64,000 bases of DNA from Minisyncoccota bacterium (GCA_035652395.1 DASRDX010000009.1:355739-419738); one strand, 5' to 3'; positions 6,380-50,873 are shown, counted from the first letter of the stretch. Notes: a model not told the origin generated them from the letters alone. Translations and numbers: made by a program.

Positions 6380-6468
6380 AAAACTTTCCCCTTCTAGGTT
6401 TGGTGTTGTTGAGAGCTAACTGCGGTAAATATTAGCATAATTTATCTTAAAAGTCAAGGATAATAAAA

Positions 6469-6494
6469 ATGACCTGTGTTTTAGCACAGGTCAT
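6469..6494 (-). terminator. Intrinsic terminator hairpin downstream of the 6502..8163 gene.
   Basis: atgacctgtg-ttttag-cacaggtcat. Confidence 0.45.
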
Positions 6495-6501
6495 GAATGA
6501 G

Positions 6502-16630: not shown

Positions 16631-16674
16631 TTTCGCTCTAAGTTAGCAAAATCGCAACGATTTTGCTATCCTGA

Positions 16675-34446: not shown

Positions 34447-37400
34447 TTATGAAGTGGAGCTCCCTGAATCCGTTGGAGGCGCTGGTTCTGATGGAAGCGG
34501 CTCTGGAGCGGGATCAGTGCTTGTTCCGGAGATAGTTGAATTAGGAGAAGTTGAGGCGATGGAATCAGTAGAAGTAGAGCTTATGGTTGACCCATTAGAG
34601 CTTCCAGAAGTGTTGTCTGGCACTACTACGGTATTGTTGTTGGAATCAACAGTAATGACGGTGCCGCTTCCTTGAGTGGTTGAAGTAGCCGTAACGTCCT
34701 GACATTCCCCCGCTACGTTTACCATCGCACCATTTCGAATAACGACGCAATATGGATCACCGGTTACCTGATCGTAAAGAGTGATGCCGTTTGGATGAGA
34801 AGGCGCACCCACTGTAAGCTGCTTGGTAAACAGATGCGAGACATAAGCAATACCGTTTAGCATTTCAGCACCAAAGGATTGGAGCGCCGAAAGAAGATCG
34901 GCTCCGAGACCTGGGCCGCCGCCTCCGGCGGCGGCCCCTCCCCCAATATTCAGACTCTCCAAACTCTTCACTCGCAAGTCGAGCGAAGCGAATGCCGCCG
35001 TAGTCGACGCATTCTTATCATCCACTTTCTGATTTAGTCCTTTTATGGCTTCTACTAAGTATGGCCCTACCTGGGCATAGAGAAGGGATTTATAGCCATT
35101 GGCATCGGTTCGTACCAACTCCGGAATGGTCTTCTCCACATCCTGAGCGATAAAGCCAACTTGCGTAGTGGTCGTATCTCCTTGTCTCCAGTTATAGGTC
35201 ACTCCCTGCAAAGCTAGAACTTTATTCAGAGAATCTGATAGCGGATTAATATTCTGCTTCAATCGCTCATCTGAAGAACATGACCATCCTGTTCCTGCCA
35301 CTACCGTACACTGAGCAGTGCCGGCGCTACCATAAAATCGCGCCACATCTGTTCCTGCAGCAGAAACAGTTAAAGGATACGTTGGAGTGCTCGTCCCAAT
35401 GCCGACGTTACCAGCACCATTGTACACAATAGCGGGAGTAGCAAGTCCATACATACCAAACGATGTATAGTTTGATGTTGAATTTGTTCCTACATAATTA
35501 AAATCAATTGACGCAAGATTATAGTTTGAGGCATCTCTTCCTAATACATAACCGACCGTATTTGAACCTCCTGCTGTAGTCAGTCCGGAATAAAGCATCT
35601 TGGTAATCCAACCATTTGTTGGTCTAGAAGTTGGCTCAACCGATAACGGTGATCCGGGGTTTGTAGTACCGATGCCTACGTTCCCTGTCGCGGTATTCAC
35701 AAACAAGGCCGGCGTCGTTCCAGTGGCTACATTTAAGTTGCCCCAGACATCCAGTTTTTGAGAAGGAGAGGAGGTTCCAATCCCGACGTTGCCTGAAGCG
35801 AGAATGGTCATTCGTGTTAAGGCTCCGGTAGCAAAACTTATACTATTTGTTGGGGAATTACCACTAGTATTGTCCGAAGTAAAAGCTAAACCGACATTAG
35901 AATAAAATTGGGCGGTATTTGGAAAAGAAAATGCCCAATTACTATTAACTAGACCGAAACCTCCGTTCGTCCCATCGGCGCGGACAACTTGTACTCCTGA
36001 AAAGGCACTGGATCCAGTATTAGCATTTCGAATAGTAAGACCGTTTACAAAATTATTATCTGAATACGCAACACTTAGAGGTGTAGAGGGGGTTGTTGTT
36101 CCAATCCCGACATTGCCATTTCCATCAATTCTCATCGCTTCAGTATTGCCTACACCCGTTCGGGAAGTTGAAAAAATGAGTTGGCCAGTTCCCCAATTGC
36201 CATTTCTTGTTCCAGCTTGAGCCGCAATAGAAGCGATTCCTACAGCGTTTCCGGGGAGGTCGCGAGAAGCAAAAACTATTTGGTTAAAATTGTTTGCTGT
36301 CTCATCAAAATTATATAGAGTTAGTGCTGGTATGTTGTTGGCCAGAGTAGTGTTGCTATCTGATTGAAATATTCCTGTCACCGGGGCCCCTATATTACTT
36401 CCGTACCAGTAACCATTTGGTACTGACCCACCAATATTTAAGAAGTTCTGAGGACTATTTGTACCTATTCCCACATTCCCCGTCGCCGTATTCACAAATA
36501 GGGCCGGTGTGGTTCCCGTCGCTACATTCAAGTTCCCCCAGACGTCGAGTTTGGAACCAGGCGTCGTTGTTCCAATTCCCACATTCCCTGAAGATTTTAT
36601 AATCAATGCTTGAGTGCCATTCTGTCCTCCATTATTTGGAATAAATCCAATATCACTAATAGATCCTAATTCCATAATGGAGTTAGCTCGTCCAATGAAA
36701 GAGCCGCCTTCATTATTGAAGTTAGCTATTGTATTAAAATTGGCACCCCCATTTACATCAAGTTTATACTGAGGATTCGTCGTTCCAATCCCGACGTTGC
36801 CACTCGGCAAAATAGTGACTTGTTGATTGAATGTATTATTAGAAGATGCGCCAAGTGTTAGAGGATAATTCTGCATTGAGCCCAATTCAATACGCCCAGC
36901 GCCTGCATTCATGTGCAGCAAGCCGTACTTGGTTGTACCTTGTAAAAGCTCAAGAAAAACATTTTGGCCAGTAGGAGCTCCAAAACTCATTCCGCCGTAC
37001 GAACTTGTTGATTGAACATATAAAAGTGGATTTGAGCCATTGGAAATGGCACCTCCTCCAACACCTGCTACATGGAGATTTGCAGTTGGACTACTCGTCC
37101 CAATCCCGACGTTGCCTGTAAATGTGCTCGTGCCTGTAACTGCAATCGTACCTCCTATAGTGGCATTGCGAAGTAAGTAAAGATCTCGCCATCCCTGACT
37201 TCCTGCAGCGCCGAGGTCTTGACCTCCAGACGGAGTTAATATATTGGCACTAAATAAAATGTTTCCACTATCTGAAGAAATTATTCTTGTAGCACCGTTA
37301 ATTTGAATCATACCGCTCAGTCCACCATTGCCGCTCCGAATGGCTCCACCATTTAATGTTTCAATAGTTCCATCAACAAGTAAATTATTTGTTCCAGGAT

Positions 37401-40254
37401 CACTGACCCCTCCAATATGAACTCCTCCTGCAACAGCGAGTTTAGCTAAAGGCGTGCTTGTCCCAATGCCGACATTGCCCGATGAATCAATTCTCATTCT
37501 TTCCGATCCGTTTGTAAGCAGCCTAATTGGTCCAGACGTTGCATTATTAATCTCTAAGAAATTACCAGCTTGTTGATTGAAGGATATAGATGCTAATCGG
37601 CCAGTTGATGTTAGAAGATCAGCAAAGTTGACCGTATAAGTAGGGTCGGTCGTATAGTAAGTTGTGCCTTGATTAGAACCATTAATCATAATTTGTACAC
37701 CTCCGTTATCGAAGGCGGGGTTGCCGAACCCGTCTGGCCAGTTTAATCGGGTTGTGCCTGTTACTGTAAGTTTTTTTGAAGTGTTTGTTGTTCCAATCCC
37801 GACATTTCCCGCTTGAGTAATGTGAAATAATGACGTACCCGTCGAGGAGGCAATCTCAACTGCGTCCTTCCCCGCCACTGCTTGGAGAGTCAGTGTTGAG
37901 GATTGAGAAGTAGTGCCAAGAGAGAGATTGCGGACAATTAAGTCGCGGAAAGTGCCGGCAGAGCCGTTGTTGATTTCAAAAATCCCGGCAGCATTTCTGG
38001 TTAAACCGATATCAGGTGTTGAGCCAGTACCAAAAACTATTCCCGCCGTAGTCCAGCGAGATGGGGTGTTGTTAAAATTATTGCTACCAAGACCTAAACC
38101 TGCGGAGACTAGAGTTGAGTTGTTACCGGCATCCTTTAAGAGAAGGACGTCATTCCCTCCTATCCCGATATCTAATTCGTGAGTGCCCTGATTCTTGAAA
38201 TAATGTCCTCCATTTATTGGAAAGAGGGTCACCACTCCACTCCCGCTTGGAGCTAAAGTGATATTCTGATTCGTTCCTCCAGCATACATGGTCAAGCCGC
38301 CTGCTCCTCCTGTAATCTGCCCATTGCTCGCCACTATTGATCCGGCAAAAGTGGAAGTGGCGGAAGCATTCGTCGCCACAAAGTTCCCGGCTGTCTCGGT
38401 GCCCGTGGTAGTAGCATTTCCGGAGTTTATGAAGTTAGAAGCGGTGACGTTCCCGGTAAAATATCCGTTACCCACGACTGTTACCTTTTCAAAAGGAGTG
38501 GTGGTGGCAATGCCGAGGTTGCCCGCAACTGAACTATTCCCAGCCCCACTTACAGTTAAAGTGCCGGGCTGAGTAGAGTTGCCACTGTCGTCAATTGCCC
38601 ATTTAATAGCATTTCCTGTTCCCTGAATTTGGAAACCGCCTTGGTTACCAGAACCTGTTCCGCCATAACGGATTCTTGCAATATTGCTTAACCAAGAAAG
38701 ACCTACACTTGCTGATTGATTAGTAGGATTTAAAACTTCAACATCACCGCCAGAGGCTCCAGAGCTTTGGATAATACCATTGTATACATCTAATTTAGAT
38801 CCCGGACTAGTCGTACCGATCCCTACATTGCCATTCGCATCGATTCTCATTCGTTCAGAGCCACTGGAGCCGGTGCCAAAACGCAAAGAATTAGATCTCC
38901 CTTCGATCCGGGCGTTCTCGTTGTTCGTGCTGTAGAAAGTTAGATATTCTCCTGTATTGCCGGCATTGGTGCCCGCATTTTGGAGTCGAAAAATTTCCAC
39001 AGTTGCATTGTCTAAATCATTCTCAACATAGAGCTTAGCGGTTGGATTTGTTGTTCCAATCCCGACATTGCCGGCAAAGGTAGAGTTGGCCGCGCCGTCT
39101 GTAGCCACAAAGTAGGCGGCCACATTAGCACCGGTAGAAGTAGAATTAGTAAAAGTTAAATTAGTAAAGTTGGCATTATTGGCAAAGAAGTTGGAGGAAG
39201 TGGCACTGGTGAAGTTTCCGGACGTACTTGTAATTCTAGTACTAAATAAGTTTGTCCCGGTCGCATTGCCAAAAATAAAATTTGAGACATTGCCGTTGGT
39301 ACCATTTAGATTGGTGGAGAAGAGATTGGTAGAGGTAGCACTAGTGAAGAGATTGTTGGTGCTTGATAGATTGGCTAGGGAGAGATTAGTGCCAGTCGCA
39401 TTGGTGAAGATGAGATTGGTAATGTTAGAACTTGAAGCGTTTAGATTGTTGACGTTCTGAGTGTTGGTGAAGGTGGTGGTGCCAGAGACATTGAAGTTGC
39501 CGTTGACGGTGAGATCGTGATTGACGGTGAGATTTCCCCCAGTGTATAGATTTCCGGCAATGGTTGAAGTAGAAAAGCCGTTAAAGAAATTATTAATTTG
39601 GTTTTGGATATTAGTAATGTCGGAGTTTGAGGGACCGGTCCAAGAGCCGATTGGAGCAGAACCTCCAGAATATGTGATGTAGTTGTTGGTGATCGGTGCC
39701 GGCTGATTTGGCGCCGATCCACTTTGCGCGCCAAAAATTAGAGTGCGCAACTCTTGATCTAGATTTGAAAGCTTTTGGTTAAGTTCTTTTTCCGTGACAC
39801 CAGATTGGATGATGGTAGTTTTTTGCGGATCGACAATAGTGACTGGTTGATTTTTAGAATATGTAGTTACATTTGAGATCGTAGATGGTTGATAATTATT
39901 CTGATTTCCTGTATTTGGCTGAATGACAATCGAGGAGGTAGTGGTTGAGATGGGTGCGGGCTTTTTAAAGAGATCAAAGAAATGTTTCAGGAAATCACTG
40001 ATGGAAGAAAGCACGGAAGCTTCCATGTTAATCCCTTGTTGCCCTAAACCACTGTAGCTATTTGCCACTTGGGTCGGCAAGGTTCCGTAAAGGTGTGCCG
40101 CATCTTTAATGGAATTAATGATGGCAGAGTTCGAATTAAAAAAAGAGGTACTTCCAACAGAAGAGGCCGCCTCTACTTTAGAGACGTTTAGGAATAGGAC
40201 GCTTATTAAGAATAAAGAGCCTAAAACTTTATTAAAAACTGGGTTATGATTCAT
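34447..40254 (-). CDS. Giant secreted surface protein 1 (1935 aa). It has a signal peptide, an N-rich 11-mer tandem-repeat region, many tail-fibre-like GNVGIGTTxP repeats, and a C-terminal peptidase S74-like intramolecular chaperone domain. A conserved Cys-containing module and an S/T-rich tail follow.
   Basis: Signal peptide LGSLFLISVLFLNVSKVEA. Repeats of the type PGSKLDVWGNLNVATGTTPALFVNTATGNVGIGT. S74-like block CSSDERLKQNINPLSDSLNKVLALQGVTYNWRQGD...VGFIAQDVEKTIPELV...LLYAQVGPYLVEAIKGLNQK at about 35030..35280. Confidence 0.8.
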   Translation of the reverse strand: MNHNPVFNKVLGSLFLISVLFLNVSKVEAASSVGSTSFFNSNSAIINSIKDAAHLYGTLPTQVANSYSGLGQQGINMEASVLSSISDFLKHFFDLFKKPAPISTTTSSIVIQPNTGNQNNYQPSTISNVTTYSKNQPVTIVDPQKTTIIQSGVTEKELNQKLSNLDQELRTLIFGAQSGSAPNQPAPITNNYITYSGGSAPIGSWTGPSNSDITNIQNQINNFFNGFSTSTIAGNLYTGGNLTVNHDLTVNGNFNVSGTTTFTNTQNVNNLNASSSNITNLIFTNATGTNLSLANLSSTNNLFTSATSTNLFSTNLNGTNGNVSNFIFGNATGTNLFSTRITSTSGNFTSATSSNFFANNANFTNLTFTNSTSTGANVAAYFVATDGAANSTFAGNVGIGTTNPTAKLYVENDLDNATVEIFRLQNAGTNAGNTGEYLTFYSTNNENARIEGRSNSLRFGTGSSGSERMRIDANGNVGIGTTSPGSKLDVYNGIIQSSGASGGDVEVLNPTNQSASVGLSWLSNIARIRYGGTGSGNQGGFQIQGTGNAIKWAIDDSGNSTQPGTLTVSGAGNSSVAGNLGIATTTPFEKVTVVGNGYFTGNVTASNFINSGNATTTGTETAGNFVATNASATSTFAGSIVASNGQITGGAGGLTMYAGGTNQNITLAPSGSGVVTLFPINGGHYFKNQGTHELDIGIGGNDVLLLKDAGNNSTLVSAGLGLGSNNFNNTPSRWTTAGIVFGTGSTPDIGLTRNAAGIFEINNGSAGTFRDLIVRNLSLGTTSQSSTLTLQAVAGKDAVEIASSTGTSLFHITQAGNVGIGTTNTSKKLTVTGTTRLNWPDGFGNPAFDNGGVQIMINGSNQGTTYYTTDPTYTVNFADLLTSTGRLASISFNQQAGNFLEINNATSGPIRLLTNGSERMRIDSSGNVGIGTSTPLAKLAVAGGVHIGGVSDPGTNNLLVDGTIETLNGGAIRSGNGGLSGMIQINGATRIISSDSGNILFSANILTPSGGQDLGAAGSQGWRDLYLLRNATIGGTIAVTGTSTFTGNVGIGTSSPTANLHVAGVGGGAISNGSNPLLYVQSTSSYGGMSFGAPTGQNVFLELLQGTTKYGLLHMNAGAGRIELGSMQNYPLTLGASSNNTFNQQVTILPSGNVGIGTTNPQYKLDVNGGANFNTIANFNNEGGSFIGRANSIMELGSISDIGFIPNNGGQNGTQALIIKSSGNVGIGTTTPGSKLDVWGNLNVATGTTPALFVNTATGNVGIGTNSPQNFLNIGGSVPNGYWYGSNIGAPVTGIFQSDSNTTLANNIPALTLYNFDETANNFNQIVFASRDLPGNAVGIASIAAQAGTRNGNWGTGQLIFSTSRTGVGNTEAMRIDGNGNVGIGTTTPSTPLSVAYSDNNFVNGLTIRNANTGSSAFSGVQVVRADGTNGGFGLVNSNWAFSFPNTAQFYSNVGLAFTSDNTSGNSPTNSISFATGALTRMTILASGNVGIGTSSPSQKLDVWGNLNVATGTTPALFVNTATGNVGIGTTNPGSPLSVEPTSRPTNGWITKMLYSGLTTAGGSNTVGYVLGRDASNYNLASIDFNYVGTNSTSNYTSFGMYGLATPAIVYNGAGNVGIGTSTPTYPLTVSAAGTDVARFYGSAGTAQCTVVAGTGWSCSSDERLKQNINPLSDSLNKVLALQGVTYNWRQGDTTTTQVGFIAQDVEKTIPELVRTDANGYKSLLYAQVGPYLVEAIKGLNQKVDDKNASTTAAFASLDLRVKSLESLNIGGGAAAGGGGPGLGADLLSALQSFGAEMLNGIAYVSHLFTKQLTVGAPSHPNGITLYDQVTGDPYCVVIRNGAMVNVAGECQDVTATSTTQGSGTVITVDSNNNTVVVPDNTSGSSNGSTISSTSTDSIASTSPNSTISGTSTDPAPEPLPSEPAPPTDSGSSTS
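39130..39480 (-). repeat. Intragenic tandem repeats of about 33 bp (11-aa) in giant protein 1 (pattern xTNATGTNLFS).
   Basis: Visible DNA periodicity (gagattggt... variants) encoding NLIFTNATGTNLSLANLSSTNNLFTSATSTNLFSTNLNGTN... Confidence 0.5.
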
Positions 40255-40279
40255 TAACTGAATCCCTCTTGGGTACTAG

Positions 40280-40308
40280 TGTACTTAGAATTATATATGA
40301 GCGCAAGA
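40280..40308 (-). promoter_or_regulatory. Putative sigma70-type promoter of giant gene 1.
   Basis: On the minus strand: TTTCAA, 17-nt spacer, TATAAT. This lies about 25 nt upstream of the AGAGGGA Shine-Dalgarno sequence and the ATG at 40254. Confidence 0.4.
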
Positions 40309-40373
40309 GGCTTTGAAAGAGAAAAAGTAGTCAAAACAACGGCTTAATTGAGCCAGCTTTTTGAGTTGACCGG

Positions 40374-40419
40374 CCCAGCCGCTTAAAGGCGCTGAAATGA
40401 CCGCCTTTAAGCGGCTGGG
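40374..40419 (-). terminator. Long perfect hairpin (17-bp stem) downstream of giant gene 2.
   Basis: cccagccgcttaaaggcg-ctgaaatgac-cgcctttaagcggctggg. It is nested in a longer imperfect palindrome (about 40347..40448). Confidence 0.5.
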
Positions 40420-40499
40420 TCAGTTAATAATTAGCCAAAAAAGCTCAATATTACCCGAGCGTATGTTATTAAATGCAAAATAATCTCCATAATCTTTAA

Positions 40500-43400
40500 T
40501 TAAGGATTGCTAATTGAAATATCCGTAGAAACGGGAAGACTACCTCCCGATCCCTCCCCTCCTGAATTATCGACACTCGCACCAATACCGGTATCCACTG
40601 CCGGCGGTAATGGAACAGGATTAGGTAAAATTTCTGTGGAGTTCACGGGAGAGCTCTCGTCTCCATTGGAAACAGTAGAAGTGGCAACTGGAGTAGAACT
40701 GCCGGAAGTATTGTTGGTATTATCCGGTACTACTACAGTGTTGTTATTTGAATCAATTGTAATAATGTTTCCGCTACCTGCTCCGACATTCGCTACCTGA
40801 TCGGTTGAGGTGCTGGTTGAATCCGGACATTCACCCGGGTCACTCTTCATTTCACCATTCATAAAGTAAACACAGATTGGTGAGCCGGTTCCTCGATCGT
40901 AAATGGTGAAACCGGTTTTAGAAACATCTTTACCTTTGATTGTTAAATTCTGTGTGGTGAGATGTTGAGCGAATACATTCTTCAAATATGAAATACCGTC
41001 CACAATTTCAGAACCAAATGACTGCAAGGTAGAAAGAATTTCTGAACCGAGTCCACTTGAAACTGTTACTCCCCCGCTTGTCTGCAAATCTTCCAAACTC
41101 TTTACCCGTATATCGATGGCAGAAAGTGCAGCGGTAGTGGAAGCATTGAAAGCATCTTGAGCGTCAAGGCGTGCAGTTGTGGAAGCGGTACTTGAAGAGA
41201 AACTGGCATAGAGAGATTTTACTGAAGCCATCAACAAACCGTTTACTGAAACTTGATCAATAACATTTCCCCACATGAATTGCGGATCCACTTCATCAGC
41301 GATGTATCCAATACGTTTCTTAGCCAACGGGCTATTCGAACCATAGCCTTCGACTTCGTTCTTGTATCGGAAGTAGTGGAGGGGAGAATCCAAAATCATT
41401 TTCAAAGCGCCATTGTAGTCGGAGTAATCAGTAATATCTTGCTTAGTATCTCGAGTGGAGGTTTGGGCGCCAATTACTACACCGGAGGCGTCGTTGGCAT
41501 TGGTTGGTGAAGAAGTGGAAACACGAACGTTTCCGGAACTGTCAGACCAGATGAATTTATCAATTCCTGTTCGGGATATTAAGTTAATTGAACCGGCACC
41601 GTTTGAAGCATTGGTATTGCGGCCTATTGTTAGGGTTCGGCCAGCCGCTCCTGCTCCAAGGTCAGCGTCTTCGAGATCAACAAAGGTTCGGGGAATAGTG
41701 CTTGTACCACCAATTCCAATATTTCCATTTGCAGCAATGTAAAGTTGTTGAGCGCCGGAAGAGGAAGCAACCAGAAGTGACATGTTGGCTCCTCCAACAC
41801 CTGTTACCCCAAGAGTGGCGAACGGAGTACTCGAGCCAACACCAAAGAAACCATTTGGTCGCAGAGTTAAGAGTTGAGCATTCGTGGAAGAAGCCACCAT
41901 AAATGGGTTGGTGGCGCCAGCAATACCAGTAACGGCTAAGGTGGCAAATGGAGTGGAGGAGCCGACACCGACATTACCGTTAAATGAAATGTGCAGTGCA
42001 GAGGTACCGGTTGATGAGGCAATGTCTAACAGGTCGTTAGCACCGGCCAATCCTTGAATGGAAAGTCGCGATGTACCGGTAGAAGTGCCGACGTTAATTA
42101 TTCCATTCAAAGTGTCCGCCACGAACAAGTTAGTGTTTCCAGTGGATCCTTGAATCTGCAGGGCTGTTACGGAATTAGTAGTTGATTGGAAAGAAACCGG
42201 AGCATTAACTACGCCACGAAGTTGAGTTGAACCAATCTGATATGAGGTGGCGATGGCGCCAGTCTGAAGTTGAACGGCATCAAGATAAAAGGTACGACCG
42301 TTAGCATCGGTCTGTTCAATGAAAATGTATGGGCTGCCTGAAATAGTTCCTGAAGTAAAAGTACAATAGAATCTTTTCCATCCACCAGTAACTACAGTAG
42401 TGTCATTTAAGGTACAGGTTTGTTCATTTACACCGTCGCTTGCGATGCCGGCTCGGATAGTAAAGTTGGCACCGGAAGCTTGAGAATAAAAAGATAAAGT
42501 GTATTGAGTAGCCGAGCTTAAAGCACTAGTAAATAAGGTGGTTTTGGCGCCGGAGGAAGCCGTGGCCGAATCCCCTACTGCCAGAGAGCTAACACCGTGA
42601 TACTTGTTGGTGGTCACACGGGTAGTAGAACCGGTGCCAGCAGTAATGGCCCAACCGGCGGCATTTACTTCAAAACCTGGGTTAGTCAGCAGGTTGTTTG
42701 AAGTAGTATCTACTACAAAGATTGGTGCACCTTGACTGTTTTGAACCTGAAAGGCGGTGGATGAGTTAGTTGGAGTCATGACTACCGCTGTCCCAGCCAC
42801 CGTTAAAGTCTGTCCTGGCGTAGAAGTGCTAATACCGAAATTACCATTTTGAAGCAAAGTTAAAAGTTGGGTGTTAGTAGAAGAGGCAATAATAAATGGA
42901 TTAATGCCTCCGTAACCTTTAACAGCCAAAGTGGCAATTGGAGTAGAGCTTCCGATGCCAACACTACCGGCTGAAGTAATACGCATTTTTTCTCCCAGAC
43001 CGCCGGTAGTGTTGTTCTTAAAACTTAAGTAGCTATTAGTTACACCGTTTGTGGCATCTTCTTTGCGAGCTTCAATGGTGCCAAAGACTCGAAGAGCAGT
43101 AGCGGGGCTGTCATTGTAGCCACCTAAAGTAATGGAAGCTCCGACATCTGCCGCTTGGGCGTTGGTGGTATAGACATTCAAATTACCGAATACGCTACCG
43201 GCAGTAGTAACGTTGGCTGAAGCAATATCTACCGTACTATTTGGACTAGCGGTGCCAATTCCAATTTTGCCGGTGGCAGTGTTTGCCGAGAAAAGCGGGG
43301 TGGAAGAAGTGGCGATATTCAGGTTGCCCCAAATATCCACTAATTGAGAAGGAGAGGAGGTACCGATACCAATCTTCCCTACCGCCGTGTTTGCAATGAA

Positions 43401-46400
43401 TAGTGAAGTAGATGAAGTGGCGACGTTGAAATTTCCCCAGACATCCAATCGCTGTGAAGGAGAAGATGTGCCAACCCCTAAGTTACCGTTTGTATCCAAT
43501 CGCATTCTTTCTTGATTGAAAGTTTTGAAAGCTAAAGAGTTGTTGTCAATCGTTCCAAGGGTAGCGAGAGCTCCGAACGAGTTCCCGTTTTGTTGAAAGT
43601 CGTTAGCCAACAGAGTCGAAGTAGAAACCCAAGTTGGCGCCACCCCTGCCCCCGCTGACTGAAGGACTTGCCCAGTAGTGCCGGCATTACCATTTGGCGT
43701 AAGAGCACCGGTGAAATTTATGTCGCCTCCGACCGAAAGTTTAGAAGATGGAGTGGTAGTGCCGACTCCAACGTTTCCGTTAGTCAAGATGCGAAATAAC
43801 TGAGTACCTGTTGATGAAGCCACTACAAACGGATCGGAGGCACCTACGCCAGTGACTGAGAGAGTGGCAAAAGGTGTAGTTGAGCCAACTCCTAATCTTC
43901 CAGCACTGGTAAGTCTCATTCCTTCGCTCAGGTTTCCTCCAGATGCTCTGGTTGAGAAACTAAGATCGGTACTAATAGGTGAACTAAGGTACGTGGCTCC
44001 CATATCAATCAAACCATCTTGAATTCTAGTTATGAGAGCGTTTTGTGAACCCGTCACGTTGTTGAAAATAGTTGTAGTTCCAAAAGTGCCGCCATTGTTT
44101 ATGCCATTTGAAATAACCAATGGAGCAGTAGGGTTACTGCTTCCCACCCCGACCATTCCAGTCGCAGTGTTCACAAATAAAGCTGGGGTGGTACCCGTGG
44201 CTACGTTTAAATTTCCCCAAAGATCTAATTTCTGTGAAGGAGTGGTAGTGCCGATGCCAAAATTGCCAGTATTTAATAAGGTAACTGCAGGGTCGGTTGA
44301 TTGAGTTCTAAATTGTATTCCTGATTGTCCATAGATTCTAAACATTGCCGCTCCGTTGGCATTCAAATCGTTGAATCCGTTTGTGTAGAAATTATAATTA
44401 TTAGAACCAGTTCCTACTTGAAGTCCAAGACTTGTGGTCGGATCTCCGGCTACAACAAGCATGGGGGCATTATTTGAAAGGGTGGACGCATTTACTCCTA
44501 TACCGACGTGCCCATTCTGAGATATGGCAAATAGATGACTATCTGTGGAAGAGGCGACAATGAATGGATTAGTGCCAGATGTACCTTTGACACTAAGCGT
44601 GGCAATTGGACTCGATGTGCCAATACCAACGTTTGCAGTATTATTGTTGAAAATATTGTTTCCGCTTGTGGTCCAGACACTATTTAAAGTATTTCCGGTA
44701 AATGAAAGACCTGTGCCCGCGGTGATGGCAGCTTGTTTGCCATTAAAAGTACTCCAGTCTGCAGAAGTTAATAGTCCCCTATTTGAAGCCGAGGCGCTTG
44801 GCATATTAAACGTATGAGTGGATCCGGAAGATACGATTGAGAAATCCGTGCCGGTGGTGGTAGTGGCAAAAGTTTGGCTGGCTCCACTCAAACCATTCAA
44901 ACTAGTTATACCGGATCCCCCACTAATGCCCAGTGTAGAAGTAGCAACCCATCTAGTAGATGTGCCGGTAGTCTGAAGAACCATTCCGAGAGTGCCGGCT
45001 GTAGCGGAGCCATCGAACAAAGTTTTAGTTAAAGAAAGTGAACCGCTAATTCCTAAACTATCGGTAATAGTAGAAGTGCCGGCGCCGGAGATTGTGGTTA
45101 GACCAGTAAAGAGTCCACTTCCAGCTACAGAAAGATTGGTGGTAGGGGTGGAGGTGCCGATGCCAACTTTTCCTGTCGCCGTATTTACCAAAAAGGTAGG
45201 AGTTGAACTTGTTGCAACATTTAGGTTGCCCCAAATGTCTAGTCTTTGTGAAGGAGTGGTTGTGCCAATTCCTATGTTTCCCGTAGAAAGATTTCCGTAC
45301 AAAGCCCCTCCAATATTAAGAAAATTATTGGCACTAGCCAATATGGATGAAGCAAGATATCCAATTAGAATGTTATTACTACTATTGTCTAGACTGGCTC
45401 CAGCGTTATATCCTAATAAAACATTGTTGGATCCTGTGACCATACTAGCGCCGGTATTCATTCCCAAGAAAACATTGTTGGATCCTGTAACTAGACTTCC
45501 TCCTCCCATGTCTCCCATTGCAATGTTATTTGAAATTGGACCTGGGGTGGCACCCTGATTCCAAGCATATCCTCCTAAGATTTCCTGGCCTATACCAGAG
45601 TTTGAACTGCCACTGGTATTATTTGCTCCTGCATAGTTACCAATAAAATTATTTGATTGTCCTATTGTATTCTGGATTCCAGCACCAATTCCTAAGAAGG
45701 TATTATCAAATCCGGTTGTATTGTAATATCCGGCGCTATTTCCTAGAAAAATATTTTCATAACCGCTGGTGGTAGTGTTGCCTGCACCACTGCCTAAGAA
45801 AATATTGTCTCGACCCGTAGTGTTTTTTGACCCGGCAGTTAAACCAATAAATACATTATTGTTTCCAGTGGTGTTGTTTGCGCCCGCACTGCTCTCAGCA
45901 AAAAAGTTGTTTCCGCCGGTAACTGCAGCGGTCGTTGTTGGAGTTGCTCCAGCTAAATAAAAACTCTTCGTTCCTGTAGCCAGAAGAGCAGATATGCCAT
46001 TAAAATAAAGGGGTTGGGTGTAGTTACTTGTTCCAGCAACGGTCAAAGCATAGCCGGCAGTGGTGGTACCAATGCCAACATTTCCTGTAGCTGTGTTTAC
46101 AAACAAAGTTGGAGTCGTACCTGTGGCCACATTCAAGTTTCCCCAGACATCTAATTTCGATCCAGGCGTGGAGGTACCAATGCCAACATTGCCGTTATTC
46201 AAAACTGAAAGAAACGTGGAGGAATTATTTCCCGCCGAGAAAATATTTCCTGAACCGATTTGCGTGATAGCGAGGGCCGTTTGCGTTGAGGAAGCAAAAA
46301 GAACTCCGGCCTGATCATTGCGTAAGTATTGCGTTGAAGATGCGCCGCCGAGATTATAGGCTTCAATGGCGGCCGGCACAGCACCGATAATTTTTCGCGG

Positions 46401-46799
46401 CGTCATTTCCGAATCTGATTCCACCGTTACTCCAAGATAAAGGGTCTGATTAAAATTGATTCCGGTAAGCGGCGTAGTAGAGCCGAGCATCACACTGAAG
46501 AGTCCGCTTGTTACCTGAATTTTATTTGCTCCAGTGTCAGCTTCCGTCCAAATAGCGGCGCCTCCGGTTGAAACGGTGTAGAGTTTGAAAGTTATGTTAT
46601 AGAGACCATCGGCGACGGCAACGTTTGAAGCGTTGGTCAACTTGCCTTGATAATTAACCTGTTGATTGATGGCGGCTTGAACTAAAGTCCCATCTGAAAA
46701 AATAGATAAAAAAATACTCCCAGTGGTAAGGAGTGTAAGTATGAGGGACCTTACGAAAAACGTATTCAGTTGTCGGTTTCTTATAAGCCTATGGACCAT
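40500..46799 (-). CDS. Giant secreted surface protein 2 (about 2099 aa from ATG 46799; the ORF track gives a TTG start at 46835). It has a signal peptide, tail-fibre-like Gly-rich repeats, a CBM4_9-like jelly-roll domain and a C-terminal S74-like intramolecular chaperone domain. The same conserved Cys module and S/T tail as protein 1 follow.
   Basis: The ATG at 46799 is preceded by the same SD context (AGAGGGATTC) as gene 1. Signal peptide MVHRLIRNRQLNTFFVRSLILTLLTTGSIFLSIFS. CBM-like block NPGFEVNAAGWAITAG...YTLSFYSQASG...GGWKRFYCTFTSG...TFYLDAVQLQ at about 42265..42690. S74-like block DITDYSDYNGALKMILDSPLHYFRYKNE...KRIGYIADEV...NGLLMASVKSL at about 41200..41455. Confidence 0.8.
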   Translation of the reverse strand: MVHRLIRNRQLNTFFVRSLILTLLTTGSIFLSIFSDGTLVQAAINQQVNYQGKLTNASNVAVADGLYNITFKLYTVSTGGAAIWTEADTGANKIQVTSGLFSVMLGSTTPLTGINFNQTLYLGVTVESDSEMTPRKIIGAVPAAIEAYNLGGASSTQYLRNDQAGVLFASSTQTALAITQIGSGNIFSAGNNSSTFLSVLNNGNVGIGTSTPGSKLDVWGNLNVATGTTPTLFVNTATGNVGIGTTTAGYALTVAGTSNYTQPLYFNGISALLATGTKSFYLAGATPTTTAAVTGGNNFFAESSAGANNTTGNNNVFIGLTAGSKNTTGRDNIFLGSGAGNTTTSGYENIFLGNSAGYYNTTGFDNTFLGIGAGIQNTIGQSNNFIGNYAGANNTSGSSNSGIGQEILGGYAWNQGATPGPISNNIAMGDMGGGSLVTGSNNVFLGMNTGASMVTGSNNVLLGYNAGASLDNSSNNILIGYLASSILASANNFLNIGGALYGNLSTGNIGIGTTTPSQRLDIWGNLNVATSSTPTFLVNTATGKVGIGTSTPTTNLSVAGSGLFTGLTTISGAGTSTITDSLGISGSLSLTKTLFDGSATAGTLGMVLQTTGTSTRWVATSTLGISGGSGITSLNGLSGASQTFATTTTGTDFSIVSSGSTHTFNMPSASASNRGLLTSADWSTFNGKQAAITAGTGLSFTGNTLNSVWTTSGNNIFNNNTANVGIGTSSPIATLSVKGTSGTNPFIVASSTDSHLFAISQNGHVGIGVNASTLSNNAPMLVVAGDPTTSLGLQVGTGSNNYNFYTNGFNDLNANGAAMFRIYGQSGIQFRTQSTDPAVTLLNTGNFGIGTTTPSQKLDLWGNLNVATGTTPALFVNTATGMVGVGSSNPTAPLVISNGINNGGTFGTTTIFNNVTGSQNALITRIQDGLIDMGATYLSSPISTDLSFSTRASGGNLSEGMRLTSAGRLGVGSTTPFATLSVTGVGASDPFVVASSTGTQLFRILTNGNVGVGTTTPSSKLSVGGDINFTGALTPNGNAGTTGQVLQSAGAGVAPTWVSTSTLLANDFQQNGNSFGALATLGTIDNNSLAFKTFNQERMRLDTNGNLGVGTSSPSQRLDVWGNFNVATSSTSLFIANTAVGKIGIGTSSPSQLVDIWGNLNIATSSTPLFSANTATGKIGIGTASPNSTVDIASANVTTAGSVFGNLNVYTTNAQAADVGASITLGGYNDSPATALRVFGTIEARKEDATNGVTNSYLSFKNNTTGGLGEKMRITSAGSVGIGSSTPIATLAVKGYGGINPFIIASSTNTQLLTLLQNGNFGISTSTPGQTLTVAGTAVVMTPTNSSTAFQVQNSQGAPIFVVDTTSNNLLTNPGFEVNAAGWAITAGTGSTTRVTTNKYHGVSSLAVGDSATASSGAKTTLFTSALSSATQYTLSFYSQASGANFTIRAGIASDGVNEQTCTLNDTTVVTGGWKRFYCTFTSGTISGSPYIFIEQTDANGRTFYLDAVQLQTGAIATSYQIGSTQLRGVVNAPVSFQSTTNSVTALQIQGSTGNTNLFVADTLNGIINVGTSTGTSRLSIQGLAGANDLLDIASSTGTSALHISFNGNVGVGSSTPFATLAVTGIAGATNPFMVASSTNAQLLTLRPNGFFGVGSSTPFATLGVTGVGGANMSLLVASSSGAQQLYIAANGNIGIGGTSTIPRTFVDLEDADLGAGAAGRTLTIGRNTNASNGAGSINLISRTGIDKFIWSDSSGNVRVSTSSPTNANDASGVVIGAQTSTRDTKQDITDYSDYNGALKMILDSPLHYFRYKNEVEGYGSNSPLAKKRIGYIADEVDPQFMWGNVIDQVSVNGLLMASVKSLYASFSSSTASTTARLDAQDAFNASTTAALSAIDIRVKSLEDLQTSGGVTVSSGLGSEILSTLQSFGSEIVDGISYLKNVFAQHLTTQNLTIKGKDVSKTGFTIYDRGTGSPICVYFMNGEMKSDPGECPDSTSTSTDQVANVGAGSGNIITIDSNNNTVVVPDNTNNTSGSSTPVATSTVSNGDESSPVNSTEILPNPVPLPPAVDTGIGASVDNSGGEGSGGSLPVSTDISISNP

Positions 46800-46873
46800 T
46801 TCAGAATCCCTCTGAAATATATCCCCCTCGTTCAATTTAGAGTCCTGAACTAGACTTTTATCCCTCGTCTAAA

Positions 46874-47078: not shown

Positions 47079-48434
47079 TTATCGCCAAATTAATTCCAGC
47101 ATCAAAAGAATGATTAAGAGGATCCAAAGCCAACTCCATCCAGGAAATTGTAGTTTATTTAAAAAACCGGAATCTTCTGAAGGCGGAATTGTTTGGAGCT
47201 TTCCTTTTTGTTGAATCAGGGTCGTGCCGTTAGCATCCACAGCGCTAATAAAAAATTCATACAAGCCGATTTTATGATATGCCGGTATCAAAGCTTCAAA
47301 AGTATTGTTACTCCCCTCTCGGGTTAAATTGTATACATTAAACTTATTGAAATCCTTTTCATCTTGGACACTTAAGATCACTTGATAAAAATTCTCTGGC
47401 AGACTTTCGGTAGATACAATGAACTTAATTGAATTATTACCCTCTACTTGTGCTAGATTATTGTAAAAATATTTCTGTTCATTGTTCTGTTCTATGCTAA
47501 TTCGGAATAAGTTCTTTGAAGTCGGAGATAAAATACTTGTAGAACTGGTAGCAACAAAGACCTGTTCATTCCGATTATTAAGAGCTGGTATGATTCGCAG
47601 ATGTAACAGTGCACCGGAGGAAAAATTACCGTCAATATTTTCCACGAAAGCGGCATAATAATAATCGTGATTAATTTGGAGCGGCCCATCCGTAACGGAA
47701 GTGCCCGTGCCCTTATAAATTTCTTTGCCATGTGCCGAGTCAATTGGATAATTAAAATCGGAACGAGTGAGGACTAAATCTCGAAAGGGTTGCTCCGAAG
47801 AATACTGCCACGTTAATTTAACCGATGATCCGACTAACTGATATGAGAAGTTCAAGATATTAATTGGTGATTGAAAAGGGCTTAAGGTAAGAAATGGAAT
47901 TGGACCGACAAAACTCGATTGACCCTTTCGATCGGTAGACTGAATCTTAAAATAATAAAGGGTGGCAGGTTCCAGATAATCAAGCTCAATCTGATGATTT
48001 ATACCGTAATTAATTTCGGTCACTCCTCCTTTCTCTGTATCGGCAGTCTTGCCCCAATTTAATAATCCGATTGATTCTCCAGTCGTTTGCCATTCTATTA
48101 AAACAGAGGTGTCGAAGAGATTAATAACTTTAATGCTTTGAGGTAAAACGGCGCTCGAAATACCGGAAGAAGTAACGGCAGTGAGCGGAGCCGGTCCGTA
48201 GTTAATGTTTGCAGAAGGCGCCGGAGTAGAAGAGGCATTACAATCTAAAGGACATCCGCCATAGGTCTCGCCGAATTGGGGTTCACAGATGTTGTTGTTA
48301 TTGCAATTATGGACCTGTAACTCAACAACGGAGGCAGTGTCGGCCGCTAAAGCGGCCGACACTGCAAAAAACGATAAAAATAGAGACCATCCAACAATAA
48401 TGGCCCCTATTAAAAAGACATTTCTAAAGGACAT
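47079..48434 (-). CDS. Surface protein with two fibronectin type III-like domains and a C-terminal TM anchor.
   Basis: Signal peptide. Cys-rich segment HNCNNNNICEPQFGETYGGCPLDCNA. FN3-like blocks SIKVINLFDTSVLIEWQT...LYYFKIQSTD and VKLTWQYSSEQPFRDLVLTRSDFNYP...YYYAAFVEN. C-terminal GWSWLWILLIILLMLELIWR. Confidence 0.5.
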   Translation of the reverse strand: MSFRNVFLIGAIIVGWSLFLSFFAVSAALAADTASVVELQVHNCNNNNICEPQFGETYGGCPLDCNASSTPAPSANINYGPAPLTAVTSSGISSAVLPQSIKVINLFDTSVLIEWQTTGESIGLLNWGKTADTEKGGVTEINYGINHQIELDYLEPATLYYFKIQSTDRKGQSSFVGPIPFLTLSPFQSPINILNFSYQLVGSSVKLTWQYSSEQPFRDLVLTRSDFNYPIDSAHGKEIYKGTGTSVTDGPLQINHDYYYAAFVENIDGNFSSGALLHLRIIPALNNRNEQVFVATSSTSILSPTSKNLFRISIEQNNEQKYFYNNLAQVEGNNSIKFIVSTESLPENFYQVILSVQDEKDFNKFNVYNLTREGSNNTFEALIPAYHKIGLYEFFISAVDANGTTLIQQKGKLQTIPPSEDSGFLNKLQFPGWSWLWILLIILLMLELIWR

Positions 48435-48435
48435 A

Positions 48436-49194
48436 CTATAGAGCCACGGCAGTAACCGTTACTGAAGCCTGATAAGTACCGGCTTCCTGAATCTTATTGG
48501 AACCGATTCCTACCTGATACTTAACGGAAGTGGTGGCCCCGTTTGGCTGATTATTGGTAGTGCCGAGAGCAATAGTTTTGGGACTCGTAGACATACCGTC
48601 CCAACATCGGTCCGTCGTATCCGTAGAACCAGTGTTGCAGGCACTACCATTATTGCGATAGCGGGAGATTACGTCTGAACCATGAGGGGAAAAACCAAAA
48701 GTGGAGGAAGCTGCTCCAACACTAAAAAGAAAATCAGGGGCAGCGCCGGCGGGGGCGTAATCCGTAATTGAAGCGCTGGTGCTGGTAGATTTTAGGGCGG
48801 GAGTAGTAGATGCCACGATAGAAAGTTGATAGCCTGCCGGATCATCTGTAACCACTATCCAATCCGATTGGGCTTGCACGGATCCACCGGAAATGCCGCT
48901 AATGTTCGGTAAGGAAATATTAACTGTATTAGATACAGAAATGTAGTTAGTCTGTAAGGCCTGATAGCCGGCGCTTAGACGATAGTTGGTACTTGAGCTG
49001 AAACCGGTTCCTACCTCCCCCACCGTACTTTCTTGTCTATAGTTACTACTGGTGCTAAAACCACCTCCAATATTCAAACTATCAGACTGAATCTTGTATG
49101 AGCTGCTCTGCATGACGGCGGCAAAAATAGAAAGCGGTATCAGAAGTATGGAAATTAAAATGACCAGTTTTAAAGTCTTGAAAATTTTTAGCAT
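48436..49194 (-). CDS. WxL-domain-like secreted surface protein (paralog A).
   Basis: Signal peptide. Motif DWIVVTDDPAGYQLS resembles the first WxL motif (TWxLxDAP). Paralogous to 50202..50873 over the C-terminal 150 aa. Confidence 0.4.
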   Translation of the reverse strand: MLKIFKTLKLVILISILLIPLSIFAAVMQSSSYKIQSDSLNIGGGFSTSSNYRQESTVGEVGTGFSSSTNYRLSAGYQALQTNYISVSNTVNISLPNISGISGGSVQAQSDWIVVTDDPAGYQLSIVASTTPALKSTSTSASITDYAPAGAAPDFLFSVGAASSTFGFSPHGSDVISRYRNNGSACNTGSTDTTDRCWDGMSTSPKTIALGTTNNQPNGATTSVKYQVGIGSNKIQEAGTYQASVTVTAVAL

Positions 49195-49230
49195 GAGATT
49201 TTTAGAGGCGCCGCGAAGCGGCGCCTCTTC

Positions 49231-50199
49231 CTACTTCCTCTTCAGTTCAAAGTTGCGTCTAAAGAAGTAGATAAGAGCGACTAAGATTAGTATGATGAGA
49301 ATAACGATGATCATGATCTTGTAAGGAATGACCCAGAAAGAAATAGTCATGTCATCAGTAGTGCTGGCGTACCCGCGATTAAGGGTAACCGTGGCAGTGT
49401 ATCTTCCGAGAGCAATATTCTTCCCCCACGGAATCTCCCGATAACGAAGTGAGTGAGGCAAAGCAAAGTAAGCATCAATTGGCAACTGATCAATCGTGGC
49501 TCCCCACATATTTTTGACCGTAATATAACCATAAGGAACGAGGTGAATGTTTCCATCGTTATTGAAGTAGACCTGAAAGGTTAAGTTGCCATTCTGATAA
49601 ATGGGTCCCGCTTCTTTGATGCGGAAATCGGATAGCCGACCACTTTGATTAACCGGCCCCAAAACTCGAACAAAAAGCAGGGACCCAATTCGGGAAATAA
49701 TAGTGGCTGCTTGGGCCGCCGCCGTACTTGAACCGGCATTTAATTTTGATGGCGCGTTTGAAACAATAACCGCTCCATAGAAACCGCCTGGTGCGGCATC
49801 TTTTGGTAGATCAACTTTGACCGGAATTTGAATACGTTCGCCAAAGTGAAGGGTAAATTGATTAACTTCCGGATGCAGGTAATCTTTCAAAGAGTACGGA
49901 CTTTTATCTCCTCCGAGCAGGACTACCGGCTGTTGGGGGTTGTTGGAACCGACTATGTCTTCAGATTTTATATCGAAGGTGACCGGATCTTTAATTCGGC
50001 TGGTAACACTGATATTAACAGTAGCGCTTTGACCCGGATTGAGATCAACTTCCTGCTTGGCAGGCTCTACCACGAAATCATTCCGATTTTCAACAGTCGT
50101 CTGGAAGACCGTGTAAGCGCGAATGGCAATAGCTCCAATCAAAAGAACGGCCAGTGTAGCACAAATCGAAATCAGAATTTTCTTTTGATTGAAAGCCAT
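49231..50199 (-). CDS. DUF916/DUF3324-like cell-surface protein (CscA-like WxL-locus partner). N-terminal signal/TM, C-terminal TM and a basic tail.
   Basis: 322 aa. N-terminal LISICATLAVLLIGAIAI. C-terminal IMIIVILIILILVALIYFFRRNFELKRK. Placed between two WxL-like genes in one operon. Confidence 0.35.
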   Translation of the reverse strand: MAFNQKKILISICATLAVLLIGAIAIRAYTVFQTTVENRNDFVVEPAKQEVDLNPGQSATVNISVTSRIKDPVTFDIKSEDIVGSNNPQQPVVLLGGDKSPYSLKDYLHPEVNQFTLHFGERIQIPVKVDLPKDAAPGGFYGAVIVSNAPSKLNAGSSTAAAQAATIISRIGSLLFVRVLGPVNQSGRLSDFRIKEAGPIYQNGNLTFQVYFNNDGNIHLVPYGYITVKNMWGATIDQLPIDAYFALPHSLRYREIPWGKNIALGRYTATVTLNRGYASTTDDMTISFWVIPYKIMIIVILIILILVALIYFFRRNFELKRK

Positions 50200-50201
50200 A
50201 A

Positions 50202-50873
50202 CTAGCTTGCCAAGGCCGTTCCGACAACTGTAGCCTTGTAGGCGGCGGAAGCTGTAGGAGTTGGAACAAAGAAATTATTTTGTTCAACGGCAAAGCAAAC
50301 TGTAGTTGTGACGCCGGTCGGAGTAGTAGTGGAAGTTCGGCTAGCAGCATTTACTTGGCTGATATAAGCGGCGGAAGAAGTGGCTAGCCCTTGATATTTC
50401 AGAGTAGTAGATGTTCCATTGGCGCTCGCTCCACAGGCTGCTCCAGTTCCCCAAGAACCCGTAGAAGTGTCAGTGCCGAAAGCAGTATAACCAAAGTAAG
50501 CGCTGCCGGAAGTGGCTACCCAAATGCTTGGAGCTGCCTTCTGGTAATCGGCGATACTAAAGGTAGGAGTTGGAGACATCTGCATGGCGGGAGTTCCAGT
50601 AGAAGTCATGGCCAGCGTGTAGCCGGCGGAATCGTTGGTGATAACCGTCCAAGTACTTGTGGCAATGGCCGAATTCTGAGTAATACCTAAGGCCGTACTC
50701 ATCGTCGTATCTCCGGAATTTGAGAGACTGATACCTTGAGTTACGTTTAAAGTAACGATTACTTGAGCGGTAACCGCTTTAGCGAACTGCGGCTCAAGTG
50801 CTCCGTAAGAGAAGAAGGCCAGCACCGCAATGACTAAGGTCGTAGAAAGAATAATACTAAGATGTTTTAGCAT
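50202..50873 (-). CDS. WxL-domain-like secreted surface protein (paralog B).
   Basis: Signal peptide. Motif TWTVITNDSAGYTLA. Paralogous to 48436..49194. Confidence 0.4.
   Translation of the reverse strand: MLKHLSIILSTTLVIAVLAFFSYGALEPQFAKAVTAQVIVTLNVTQGISLSNSGDTTMSTALGITQNSAIATSTWTVITNDSAGYTLAMTSTGTPAMQMSPTPTFSIADYQKAAPSIWVATSGSAYFGYTAFGTDTSTGSWGTGAACGASANGTSTTLKYQGLATSSAAYISQVNAASRTSTTTPTGVTTTVCFAVEQNNFFVPTPTASAAYKATVVGTALAS

Follow-up and report, generated by a model that had tools for sequence, protein, structure and literature searches.

Giant tail-fibre-like proteins with a Peptidase_S74 domain and a C-terminal two-cysteine hairpin: candidate attachment fibres of a Candidatus Paceibacterota bacterium

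The mosaic adhesive trimer (MAT) fibres of Bdellovibrio, of which 21 have been described, combine a signal peptide, a conserved N-terminal beta domain of about 130 aa and a trimeric beta-helix shaft with the capping-loop consensus V-G-G/N-pi-x-x-P-x-x-x-L, and they end in either a terminal Peptidase_S74 (S74) domain with an SDxxxK motif, which in Bd3182 was shown to cleave itself, or a different adhesive tip; the fibres are exposed on the cell surface and take part in prey handling (Caulton et al. 2024, PMC10769870). Here we describe two adjoining giant genes, P1 and P2, in a 64,000-nucleotide stretch of a Minisyncoccota genome (GCA_035652395.1, DASRDX010000009.1:355739-419738; the whole stretch is hereafter the window). 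From their observed domains and homologies, the fold of the S74 part, the cellular setting of the genes and their distribution over lineages, we consider it likely that P1 and P2 are cellular members of this phage-tail-fibre-derived class: fibre adhesins of the MAT type, exported by Sec, chaperoned by S74 and probably homotrimeric, with which an episymbiotic Paceibacterota cell would bind host or environmental glycans.

A first-pass annotation of this DNA had proposed two adjacent minus-strand giant genes with one shared architecture in a CPR-like (candidate phyla radiation) genome. ORF (open reading frame) calling found two adjoining minus-strand ORFs over 34447-46835, with the start of the second corrected to 46799, and their source is a Candidatus Paceibacterota metagenome-assembled genome (MAG; 462,702-bp contig):

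34447..40254, minus strand: P1 fibre protein, 1935 aa, ATG start, exact match to HZS43041.1, PHROG tail-fibre family match at 5e-42
40500..46799, minus strand: P2 fibre protein, 2099 aa, exactly HZS43042.1, PHROG tail-fibre family match at 1.2e-23

The second ORF (40500-46835, minus strand) is open as far as a TTG at 46835, and the ATG at 46799 is its Met13. Because the spacing from AGAGGGATTC(A/T)G to this ATG is as in P1 and the deposited product has 2099 aa, the true start of P2 is almost certainly the ATG and not the TTG. In NCBI, HZS43041.1 already carries the name 'tail fiber domain-containing protein', and HZS43042.1 was deposited as 'hypothetical protein VFA52_02365'. BLASTP alignments mark the two proteins as paralogs, with 40% identity in the shaft (E 3e-42) and 34% identity over the last 361 aa, the C-terminal module (E 9e-39); the PHROG matches likewise bear out the tail-fibre-like pattern that had been read from the repeats. 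Both are rich in Gly, Thr, Asn and Ser, and each has four Cys in locally spaced pairs. The best sigma-70-like matches of the region lie just upstream of P1 and of P2, and a terminator-like hairpin follows P2; the positions of these signals, whose totals in the region were not above those of shuffled sequences, suggest that P1 and P2 are separate transcription units.

The relation to MAT fibres was evident from a search of PDB sequences with a profile of the P1 C-terminal family (alignment A2), which also matched Bd2439 chains:

Bdellovibrio MAT fibre Bd2133 (8ond): 9.5e-23
Phage long tail fibre (6f45): 1.2e-20
MyRF (7dc3): 2.6e-19
Tail fibre (8jov): 3.8e-18
Bd3182 (8ojn): 3.3e-11
Bd1334 (8oml): 8e-7
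GA-1 neck-appendage chaperone (3gud): 8e-6

The P1 unit 'SERMRIDANGNVGIGTTSPGSKLDV' is nearly the same capping-loop unit as 'SERMRIDTSGNLGLGTAAPTSALHV' of Bd2133. As with MAT fibres, P1 and P2 are cellular proteins with predicted signal peptides, an S74 SDxxxK chaperone-protease and swappable adhesive domains, and Bdellovibrio also lives on other bacteria. In contrast, P1 and P2 are about twice as long, belong to a CPR organism rather than a diderm predator, are known here from their sequence, and continue after S74 with helices, a two-Cys hairpin and a Ser/Thr/Pro (S/T/P)-rich tail; the N-terminal domain conserved among MAT fibres appears to be missing from P1 and is at most possibly present in P2. 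A full-length search at E<=1e-10 retrieved at least 624 giant relatives (1,000-3,400 aa, about 25-30% identity), many of them with S74, and the named ones belong to Pacebacteria, Flavobacteriales and Elusimicrobiota. The giant S74-fibre class is widespread and partly auto-annotated, and the novelty of the pair is limited, given the existing annotation of P1, these relatives and the characterisation of the class as MAT fibres (PMC10769870).

The first-pass annotation had placed an S74 block in each of the two proteins and called for a check of the Ser/Lys dyad. The block stood firmly in P1 and was marginal and strongly diverged in P2:

35110..35274, minus strand: P1 Peptidase_S74 / intramolecular chaperone core, residues 1661-1715, Pfam 62.8 bits
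35257-35274, minus strand: putative catalytic S1661 and K1666 of P1, within S-D-E-R-L-K, the canonical SDxxxK
41289..41459, minus strand: P2 divergent S74-like domain, S1781...K1786 = STRDTK (2099-aa numbering), homologous to the P1 S74 region

Against a PF13884 cutoff of 22 bits, P1 scored 62.8-65.3 bits across full-length and segment scans, whereas the score of P2 was 17-19 bits within long contexts and reached 22.3 bits with the segment taken by itself. The dyad is intact in P1; P2 retains the Ser-x4-Lys spacing, with Thr in place of the Asp that follows the catalytic Ser in 145/159 relatives (Thr in 2). An AlphaFold2 (AF2) monomer model of P1 residues 1600-1900 gave a predicted local distance difference test score (pLDDT) >90 over the S74 part, together with a 40-residue helix. 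In Foldseek against the PDB, the modeled S74 part matched the MyRF ICA (7dc3; E 2e-5, probability 1.0) and then the endosialidase (endoNF) chaperone (3gw6; E 0.05), so that, as modeled, this part of P1 has the fold characteristic of S74 intramolecular chaperones, a beta-prism with a long helix. The phage C-terminal chaperones (K1F endosialidase, 3GW6; T5 pb1, 4UW8; GA-1 gp12, 3GUD; long tail fibre, 6F45) share PF13884 and the Ser-Lys dyad with P1 and P2, in addition to the fold match, the sequence-profile matches and the PHROG tail-fibre families. The MyRF ICA, a eukaryotic S74 homologue (7DC3) that trimerises and self-cleaves, is the best structural match and resembles the present proteins in that its sequence continues past S74 and cleavage separates two functional parts; unlike them, MyRF is a transcription factor, and its C-terminal part is membrane-anchored, whereas P1 and P2 have no C-terminal transmembrane (TM) segment. 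Directly before the catalytic Ser of P1 (residues 1649-1660, window 35275-35310) lies a Cys pair, 'QCTVVAGTGWSCSSDE', which is kept nearly unchanged in the proteins P0007 (named Saccharibacteria), P0005 and P0002, and this conservation suggests a disulfide-stapled hairpin at the cleavage site in this sub-lineage.

Upstream of S74, the following parts of the two proteins were recognised:

40168..40254, minus strand: P1 predicted signal peptide, residues 1-29, ...VEA/AS, sole hydrophobic 19-mer, cleavage site inferred from sequence
46674..46799, minus strand: P2 predicted signal peptide or signal anchor, residues 1-42, ...LVQA/AI, sole hydrophobic segment
46350..46673, minus strand: P2 N-terminal beta-sandwich, about 100 aa, Ig-like (immunoglobulin-like)
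35305..39084, minus strand: P1 shaft, residues ~391-1650, with 13 'GNVGIGTTxPxxKL' capping-loop motifs
45324..45911, minus strand: P2 17-aa 'NxFxGxxAGxxNTTG' repeats, nine copies, residues 297-492 (regular expression), YadA-head-like by eye
42339..42698, minus strand: P2 CBM_4_9 (PF02018) jelly roll of carbohydrate-binding type, residues 1368-1487, Pfam 47.6 and 45 bits

Each protein has a single hydrophobic 19-mer, N-terminal in both and followed by an AxA-like site, consistent with the signal peptides proposed earlier; a hydrophobicity scan found no other TM segment in P1 or P2. The P2 beta-sandwich is common to 14 other fibre proteins fetched as relatives of P1, and the first 240 residues of P1 had no relatives among the fetched proteins and are unrelated to the P2 N-terminus. 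The shaft motif 'GNVGIGTTxP' has 13 copies in P1 and 14 in P2, against a mean of 0.07 and a maximum of 3 in composition-preserving shuffles. The Gly-rich repeats of the first-pass annotation are thus real as a motif, whereas the long runs of 35-40-aa units that it described are not: the spacing ranges over 36-289 aa, and exact 36-aa spacing is confined to six doublets or triplets. Recent duplication or an assembly artefact as the source of the shaft repeats was excluded by the DNA identity of the copies, which is 60-79%. Two P1 blocks (35671-35808 and 36466-36603; residues 1225-1270 and 1490-1535) encode the identical 25-aa peptide KLDVWGNLNVATGTTPALFVNTATG with DNA that is 71% identical, and a third, nearly identical block was found in P2. 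Because the copies have diverged in DNA to this extent, also under the identical 25 aa, selection at the protein level appears to keep the motif, which indicates strong purifying selection on the KLDVWGNLNVATGTTPALFVNTATG unit and not recent conversion.

The CBM4_9-like domain predicted for the second gene is borne out by Pfam (cutoff 25.9 bits), in which the full-length scan missed it and segment scans recovered it. Segment-wise Pfam scans of P1 and P2 found nothing besides S74 and CBM_4_9, about 85% of each protein has no Pfam model, and no NCBIfam model matched either protein. The nine 17-aa repeats of P2 recall the YadA-family trimeric autotransporters, which share the repetitive trimeric-fibre logic, and the related CPR fibres L002 and L003 match PF05658 YadA_head; P2 itself gave no YadA_head match in full-length or segment Pfam scans. 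P1 and P2 differ from that family in having no C-terminal beta-barrel anchor and in having S74 as the putative trimerisation device, and an assignment as trimeric autotransporter adhesins was rejected because neither YadA_head nor the anchor was matched in P1 or P2. RHS/YD toxins and SLH S-layer proteins, which the first-pass annotation had named as what could overturn the tail-fibre analogy, were also rejected, since full-length and segment scans gave no such Pfam match. A structural role in the envelope or matrix, as an S-layer-like coat, a biofilm scaffold or glycan-harvesting fibres, would fit very large, secreted, Thr/Ser/Asn/Gly-rich proteins, a CBM that could bind environmental polysaccharide, and the occurrence of similar giants in the non-episymbiotic Flavobacteriales and Elusimicrobiota. 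We regard such a role as improbable, because there is no SLH or S-layer domain match, the nearest relatives among characterised proteins are adhesive fibres and the receptor-binding proteins of phages, and a fibre with a distal chaperone is typical of receptor-binding proteins.

For P1 and P2 as MAT-type adhesins, we infer trimerisation, autocleavage, the orientation of the fibre and host binding along the following lines. The chain would be exported N-to-C via Sec, and the C-terminal S74 chaperone would emerge last, trimerise and template the folding of the upstream beta-helical shaft, whose segments would be closed by the recurring 'GNVGIGTTxPxxKL' capping loops. The Ser-Lys dyad (S1661/K1666 in P1) would then cut the chain and release a C-terminal piece of about 275 aa, comprising the chaperone, the helices, the two-Cys hairpin and the S/T/P tail, thereby exposing the distal tip. 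In P2, the lectin-like CBM_4_9 domain, about 290 residues before the cleavage site, and the YadA-head-like repeats would supply glycan binding; in P1, the beta-helical tip would be the ligand-binding part. The N-terminal end, which in P2 is the conserved beta-sandwich, would stay at the cell surface, and the fibres would bind host-cell or environmental glycans and so aid attachment of the episymbiont.

What sets P1 and P2 apart from the described fibres is the extension that follows S74:

34822..35109, minus strand: P1 helices after S74, two long helices including 'LGADLLSALQSFGAEMLNGIAYVSHLF' (AF2 model residues 127-168 and 184-212; alignment)
34702..34821, minus strand: P1 two-Cys beta-hairpin, LTVG...GITLYDQVTGDPYCVVIRNGAMVNVAGEC, C1836 and C1851, AF2 strands with pLDDT 81-91
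34450..34701, minus strand: P1 tail, ITVDSNNNTVVVPDNT, then S/T/P-rich low complexity (translation)
40827..40946, minus strand: P2 two-Cys beta-hairpin, GFTIYDRGTGSPICVYFMNGEMKSDPGEC
40503..40826, minus strand: P2 tail, ITIDSNNNTVVVPDNT, then S/T/P/G-rich sequence

The common two-Cys module, the NNNTVVVPDNT motif and the S/T/P tail, all described at first pass, are present in both proteins. An Asn-Gly turn is bracketed by the two Cys of the hairpin, and the consensus of the module is a helix 'LGAxIxxGIAYFKN', then 'LTVGSxxKPxGITLYDxxTGxPYCLxxxNGxxxxxxGxC'. No Pfam model matched the module significantly (best E 0.08, below cutoffs), and PDB sequences gave no match to it even at E<=10. Among 1.84 billion representatives, a hairpin profile nevertheless retrieved 1,292 clusters at E<=1e-3, of which 539 also passed E<=1e-10; the match always lay near the C-terminus, in proteins of up to 4,705 aa, and the named matches are from Niyogibacteria or 'Patescibacteria group'. 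All 12 of the 12 genome loci with the hairpin, collected with a single peptide pattern in a scan that was not exhaustive, are from Patescibacteria (Parcubacteria, Saccharibacteria, Nomurabacteria and Sungiibacteriota). Relatives usually carry a DUF5011/PF16403 Ig-like domain, a low-complexity tail or an S/T/P tail after the hairpin, and in hairpin-bearing representatives the sequence runs on for a median of 124 aa past the second Cys. In P1 and P2, ITVDSNNNTVVVPDNT may be a remnant of that Ig domain, with whose first strand it aligns. The distance from S74 to the hairpin is tightly conserved, with a median of 152 aa where S74 is detectable (5/8 loci, 52/145 representatives).

The hairpin also occurs in a virus. 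A viral contig (L013, IMGVR_UViG_3300009285_005118) that encodes a major head protein (phrog_9953, 2e-42) carries at 4486-6147 a 553-aa tail fibre with a capping loop and an SDQKLK-type S74, which ends five residues past the two-Cys hairpin. This tail fibre oddly starts with a signal-peptide-like hydrophobic N-terminus. It is possibly the receptor-binding protein of a CPR phage that exchanges modules with cellular fibres. Most simply, the two-Cys hairpin is a lineage-specific C-terminal appendage of the chaperone, common to CPR cells and a phage. One possible role for it is that of a foldon-like trimerisation nucleus; its likeness to the foldon hairpin of T4 fibritin was seen by eye, without search support, because the module has no significant Pfam or PDB sequence match.

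Several observations weigh against the proposed adhesin and its cleavage. The P2 S74 has lost the GFIAQEVxxxxPELV signature and that of the following helix, has Thr for Asp and scores at or below the Pfam threshold; the domain is homologous, but its activity is doubtful, and P2 may not cleave. The catalytic Ser lies 274 aa from the C-terminus in P1 and 318 aa in P2, compared with 89-119 aa in 45/57 giant relatives with a recognisable catalytic motif, so that neither protein has its S74 at the extreme C-terminus, where the Ser would be expected within about 90-150 aa of the end. Cleavage would discard the conserved hairpin and an 84-108-aa tail, and in relatives a whole DUF5011 Ig domain, which seems wasteful. 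S74 is detectable in only 63/145 top hairpin-bearing representatives; because about half of the hairpin-bearing proteins have no detectable S74, the extension may have a function of its own, such as anchoring or adhesion. In addition, no cell anchor was identified, and P1 lacks the N-terminal beta-sandwich of P2.

Taken further, these points lead to a different architecture, in which the helix, the two-Cys hairpin and the tail or Ig domain form a retained unit, either a wall or S-layer anchor or a distal adhesive or trimerisation cap, and S74 is non-cleaving, notably in P2, or acts in the manner of MyRF to free the fibre from a tethered C-terminus. We consider this rather unlikely, and the evidence on it is divided. 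Stretches rich in Ser, Thr and Pro at the C-terminus are typical wall-spanning linkers in monoderms, and the degenerate S74 of P2, the number of clusters in which the module is conserved, the frequent DUF5011/PF16403 domains or long S/T/P tails after it, and the modest fraction of top representatives with detectable S74 are all as expected of a retained extension. On the other hand, P1 and P2 have no C-terminal TM segment, LPXTG or known anchor motif, the catalytic motif of P1 is intact, and the phage fibre L013 stops right after the hairpin, as expected of a chaperone appendage; many of the S74-negative matches, moreover, are short-contig fragments or may carry a diverged S74.

The genomic setting was examined for a phage origin. 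The flanks encode DnaE, ThrRS, GyrB, PheS, a release factor, an aldolase, a PfkB kinase, a split transketolase, Rpe and RpiB, as well as GAPDH, GatB, Obg, ABC transporters and SecA, and none of the approximately 30 flanking ORFs scanned is a capsid, terminase, tail tube, sheath, baseplate or integrase gene. The slot, in which a fibre gene precedes GAPDH-RpiB-(Rpe)-split transketolase and which in the window spans 30292-52448, is conserved in two Parcubacteria-type MAGs: in L003:485-12693, a 1,292-aa S74-hairpin fibre lies between GatB and GAPDH-RpiB-transketolase, and in L007:6813-10158, a hairpin-bearing fibre without a Pfam S74 match precedes GAPDH-RpiB. The genes between GatB and the fibre differ, being pam-like in the window (see below) and three unrelated, soluble, TM-less proteins in L003. 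The fibre locus is therefore cellular and vertically inherited, with variable fibre content, and because the housekeeping context is syntenic in other Parcubacteria, P1 and P2 are cellular and not prophage genes, as had been supposed from the absence of nearby phage genes. That they are remnants of a prophage or of a phage-derived particle (a tailocin or a phage-like protein-translocation structure), and hence real virion tail fibres, is very improbable: the PHROG tail-fibre matches and the occurrence of S74 with the hairpin in a viral contig would suit it, yet both proteins have signal-peptide-like N-termini, the flanking ORFs include no phage structural or integrase genes, the slot between housekeeping genes recurs in other MAGs, and P1 and P2 are 2-4x the size of typical fibres. 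The same signal peptides, housekeeping context and giant size, together with the extended C-terminus, separate them from phage fibres as a class; they are not virion proteins.

Upstream of P2 lies a set of genes that recalls a recently reported pilus system:

47079..50873, minus strand: four-gene, tentatively pam-like (CPR donor-strand pilus) cluster, immediately upstream of P2 and on the same strand

Described pam operons comprise pilins and PamT, the membrane-anchored chaperones PamC/D and the FnIII (fibronectin type III) anchor PamR, and the same preprint notes in a single sentence that the pam operons of CPR consistently have a co-localised 'tail fibre-like protein'; this association was reported for Saccharimonadia and Microgenomatia, in which the Pam pilins were mainly found (Troman et al. 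2026, 10.64898/2026.03.03.709456). The four neighbours in the window resemble PamT/pilin, a membrane-anchored chaperone and an FnIII anchor: two are small, secreted paralogs, one is an FnIII protein whose C-terminus carries a TM helix, and one is a two-domain, chaperone-like protein that also has such a helix at its C-terminus and gave a weak DUF916-type match. One of the small secreted proteins (252 aa) matches the NCBIfam model 'CPR-type pilus protein PamT' (E 5.7e-11, 42 bits vs a cutoff of 240), and the other three matched no NCBIfam Pam model. None of the four had a PDB sequence match, and no homologues were detectable in 12 related loci except for one FnIII protein in L010. Unlike the reported cases, the present one is in a Paceibacterota MAG, and at such a score the cluster can be called a pam-like pilus operon only tentatively.

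Whether the fibres belong to this pilus can be argued from the same genes. P1 and P2 could be mounted on the pilus or held through its FnIII or chaperone components as one composite attachment organelle, and the fit of the four same-strand genes to the pam architecture, the PamT match, the reported co-localisation, the FnIII homologue that adjoins a fibre gene in L010 and the Ig-like beta-sandwich at the start of P2 would agree with this. Such coupling seems distinctly unlikely to us, since the PamT score is far below its cutoff, the other three proteins have neither a Pam model nor a PDB sequence match, P1 and P2 have promoter-like and terminator-like signals of their own (in totals not above shuffles), the syntenic L003 has a fibre gene without pam-like genes, and P1 and P2 gave no evidence of donor-strand elements. 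A bolder version, speculative and in our view unlikely, makes the hairpin a Patescibacteria-specific foldon-like trimerisation or anchoring device, used in common by CPR bacteria and their phages to build surface fibres, and joins P1, P2 and the pam-like genes in one composite organelle for host attachment, with S74 cleavage controlling the maturation or release of the fibre.

Further features of the window and of the related loci were noted. The split transketolase consists of two overlapping ORFs (30292-32125, minus strand), a thiamine pyrophosphate-binding N-half at 31259-32125 and a Pyr/C-terminal half at 30292-31287. At 15383-18800 (plus strand), genes for a family-2 glycosyltransferase and for a PMT_2-type membrane protein resembling protein mannosyltransferases lie together with a 231-aa ORF, and these genes are possible candidates for glycosylating S/T-rich surface proteins. 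ORFs of 453, 297, 553 and 418 aa at 3993-8163 (minus strand) and 10336-11592 (plus strand) have no Pfam match at E<=1e-5. In L001:2-4828 (Parcubacteria GW2011_GWA2_40_14), an intein (PF14890, E 1e-10), unusual within a secreted fibre gene, interrupts the gene just before the last capping loop and S74; stop codons and an inserted ORF that bears a 'KPVRSFRDLEVYQK' motif seem to disrupt the intein itself, and 'KPVRSFRDLEVYQK' is also found in an ORF of L004. In the Patescibacteria loci L001, L010 and L011, a large polytopic membrane protein is encoded next after the hairpin-bearing fibre gene, and then a MurJ-like polytopic membrane protein (by eye), to which L001 and L011 add an ORF with a LepA-like N-terminus (by eye); this order looks like a second recurrent chromosomal slot for hairpin fibres.

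Our literature search found no dedicated paper on S74, endosialidase or 'tail fiber domain-containing' proteins of Patescibacteria or Saccharibacteria. P1 and P2 appear to be a lineage-specific version of MAT-type fibres that has not been described before, and the non-terminal position of S74, the unnamed Cys-hairpin after it and the location of the genes beside a pam-like CPR pilus operon likewise appear undescribed. Type IV pili and the new Pam pili make up most of what is known of how members of CPR/Patescibacteria recognise and hold their hosts, and two genes totalling 12 kb represent a large investment for a reduced genome. P1 and P2 may function in host attachment, and they are concrete, testable candidates for host or glycan recognition in Paceibacterota. 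The unnamed Cys-hairpin module, with its 1,292 clusters, is a candidate new domain family and may serve as a marker for CPR surface fibres and the receptor-binding proteins of CPR phages. Collectively, if P1 and P2 act as proposed, the principle that bacteria borrow phage receptor-binding fibres to grab other bacteria would extend from Bdellovibrio to episymbionts.

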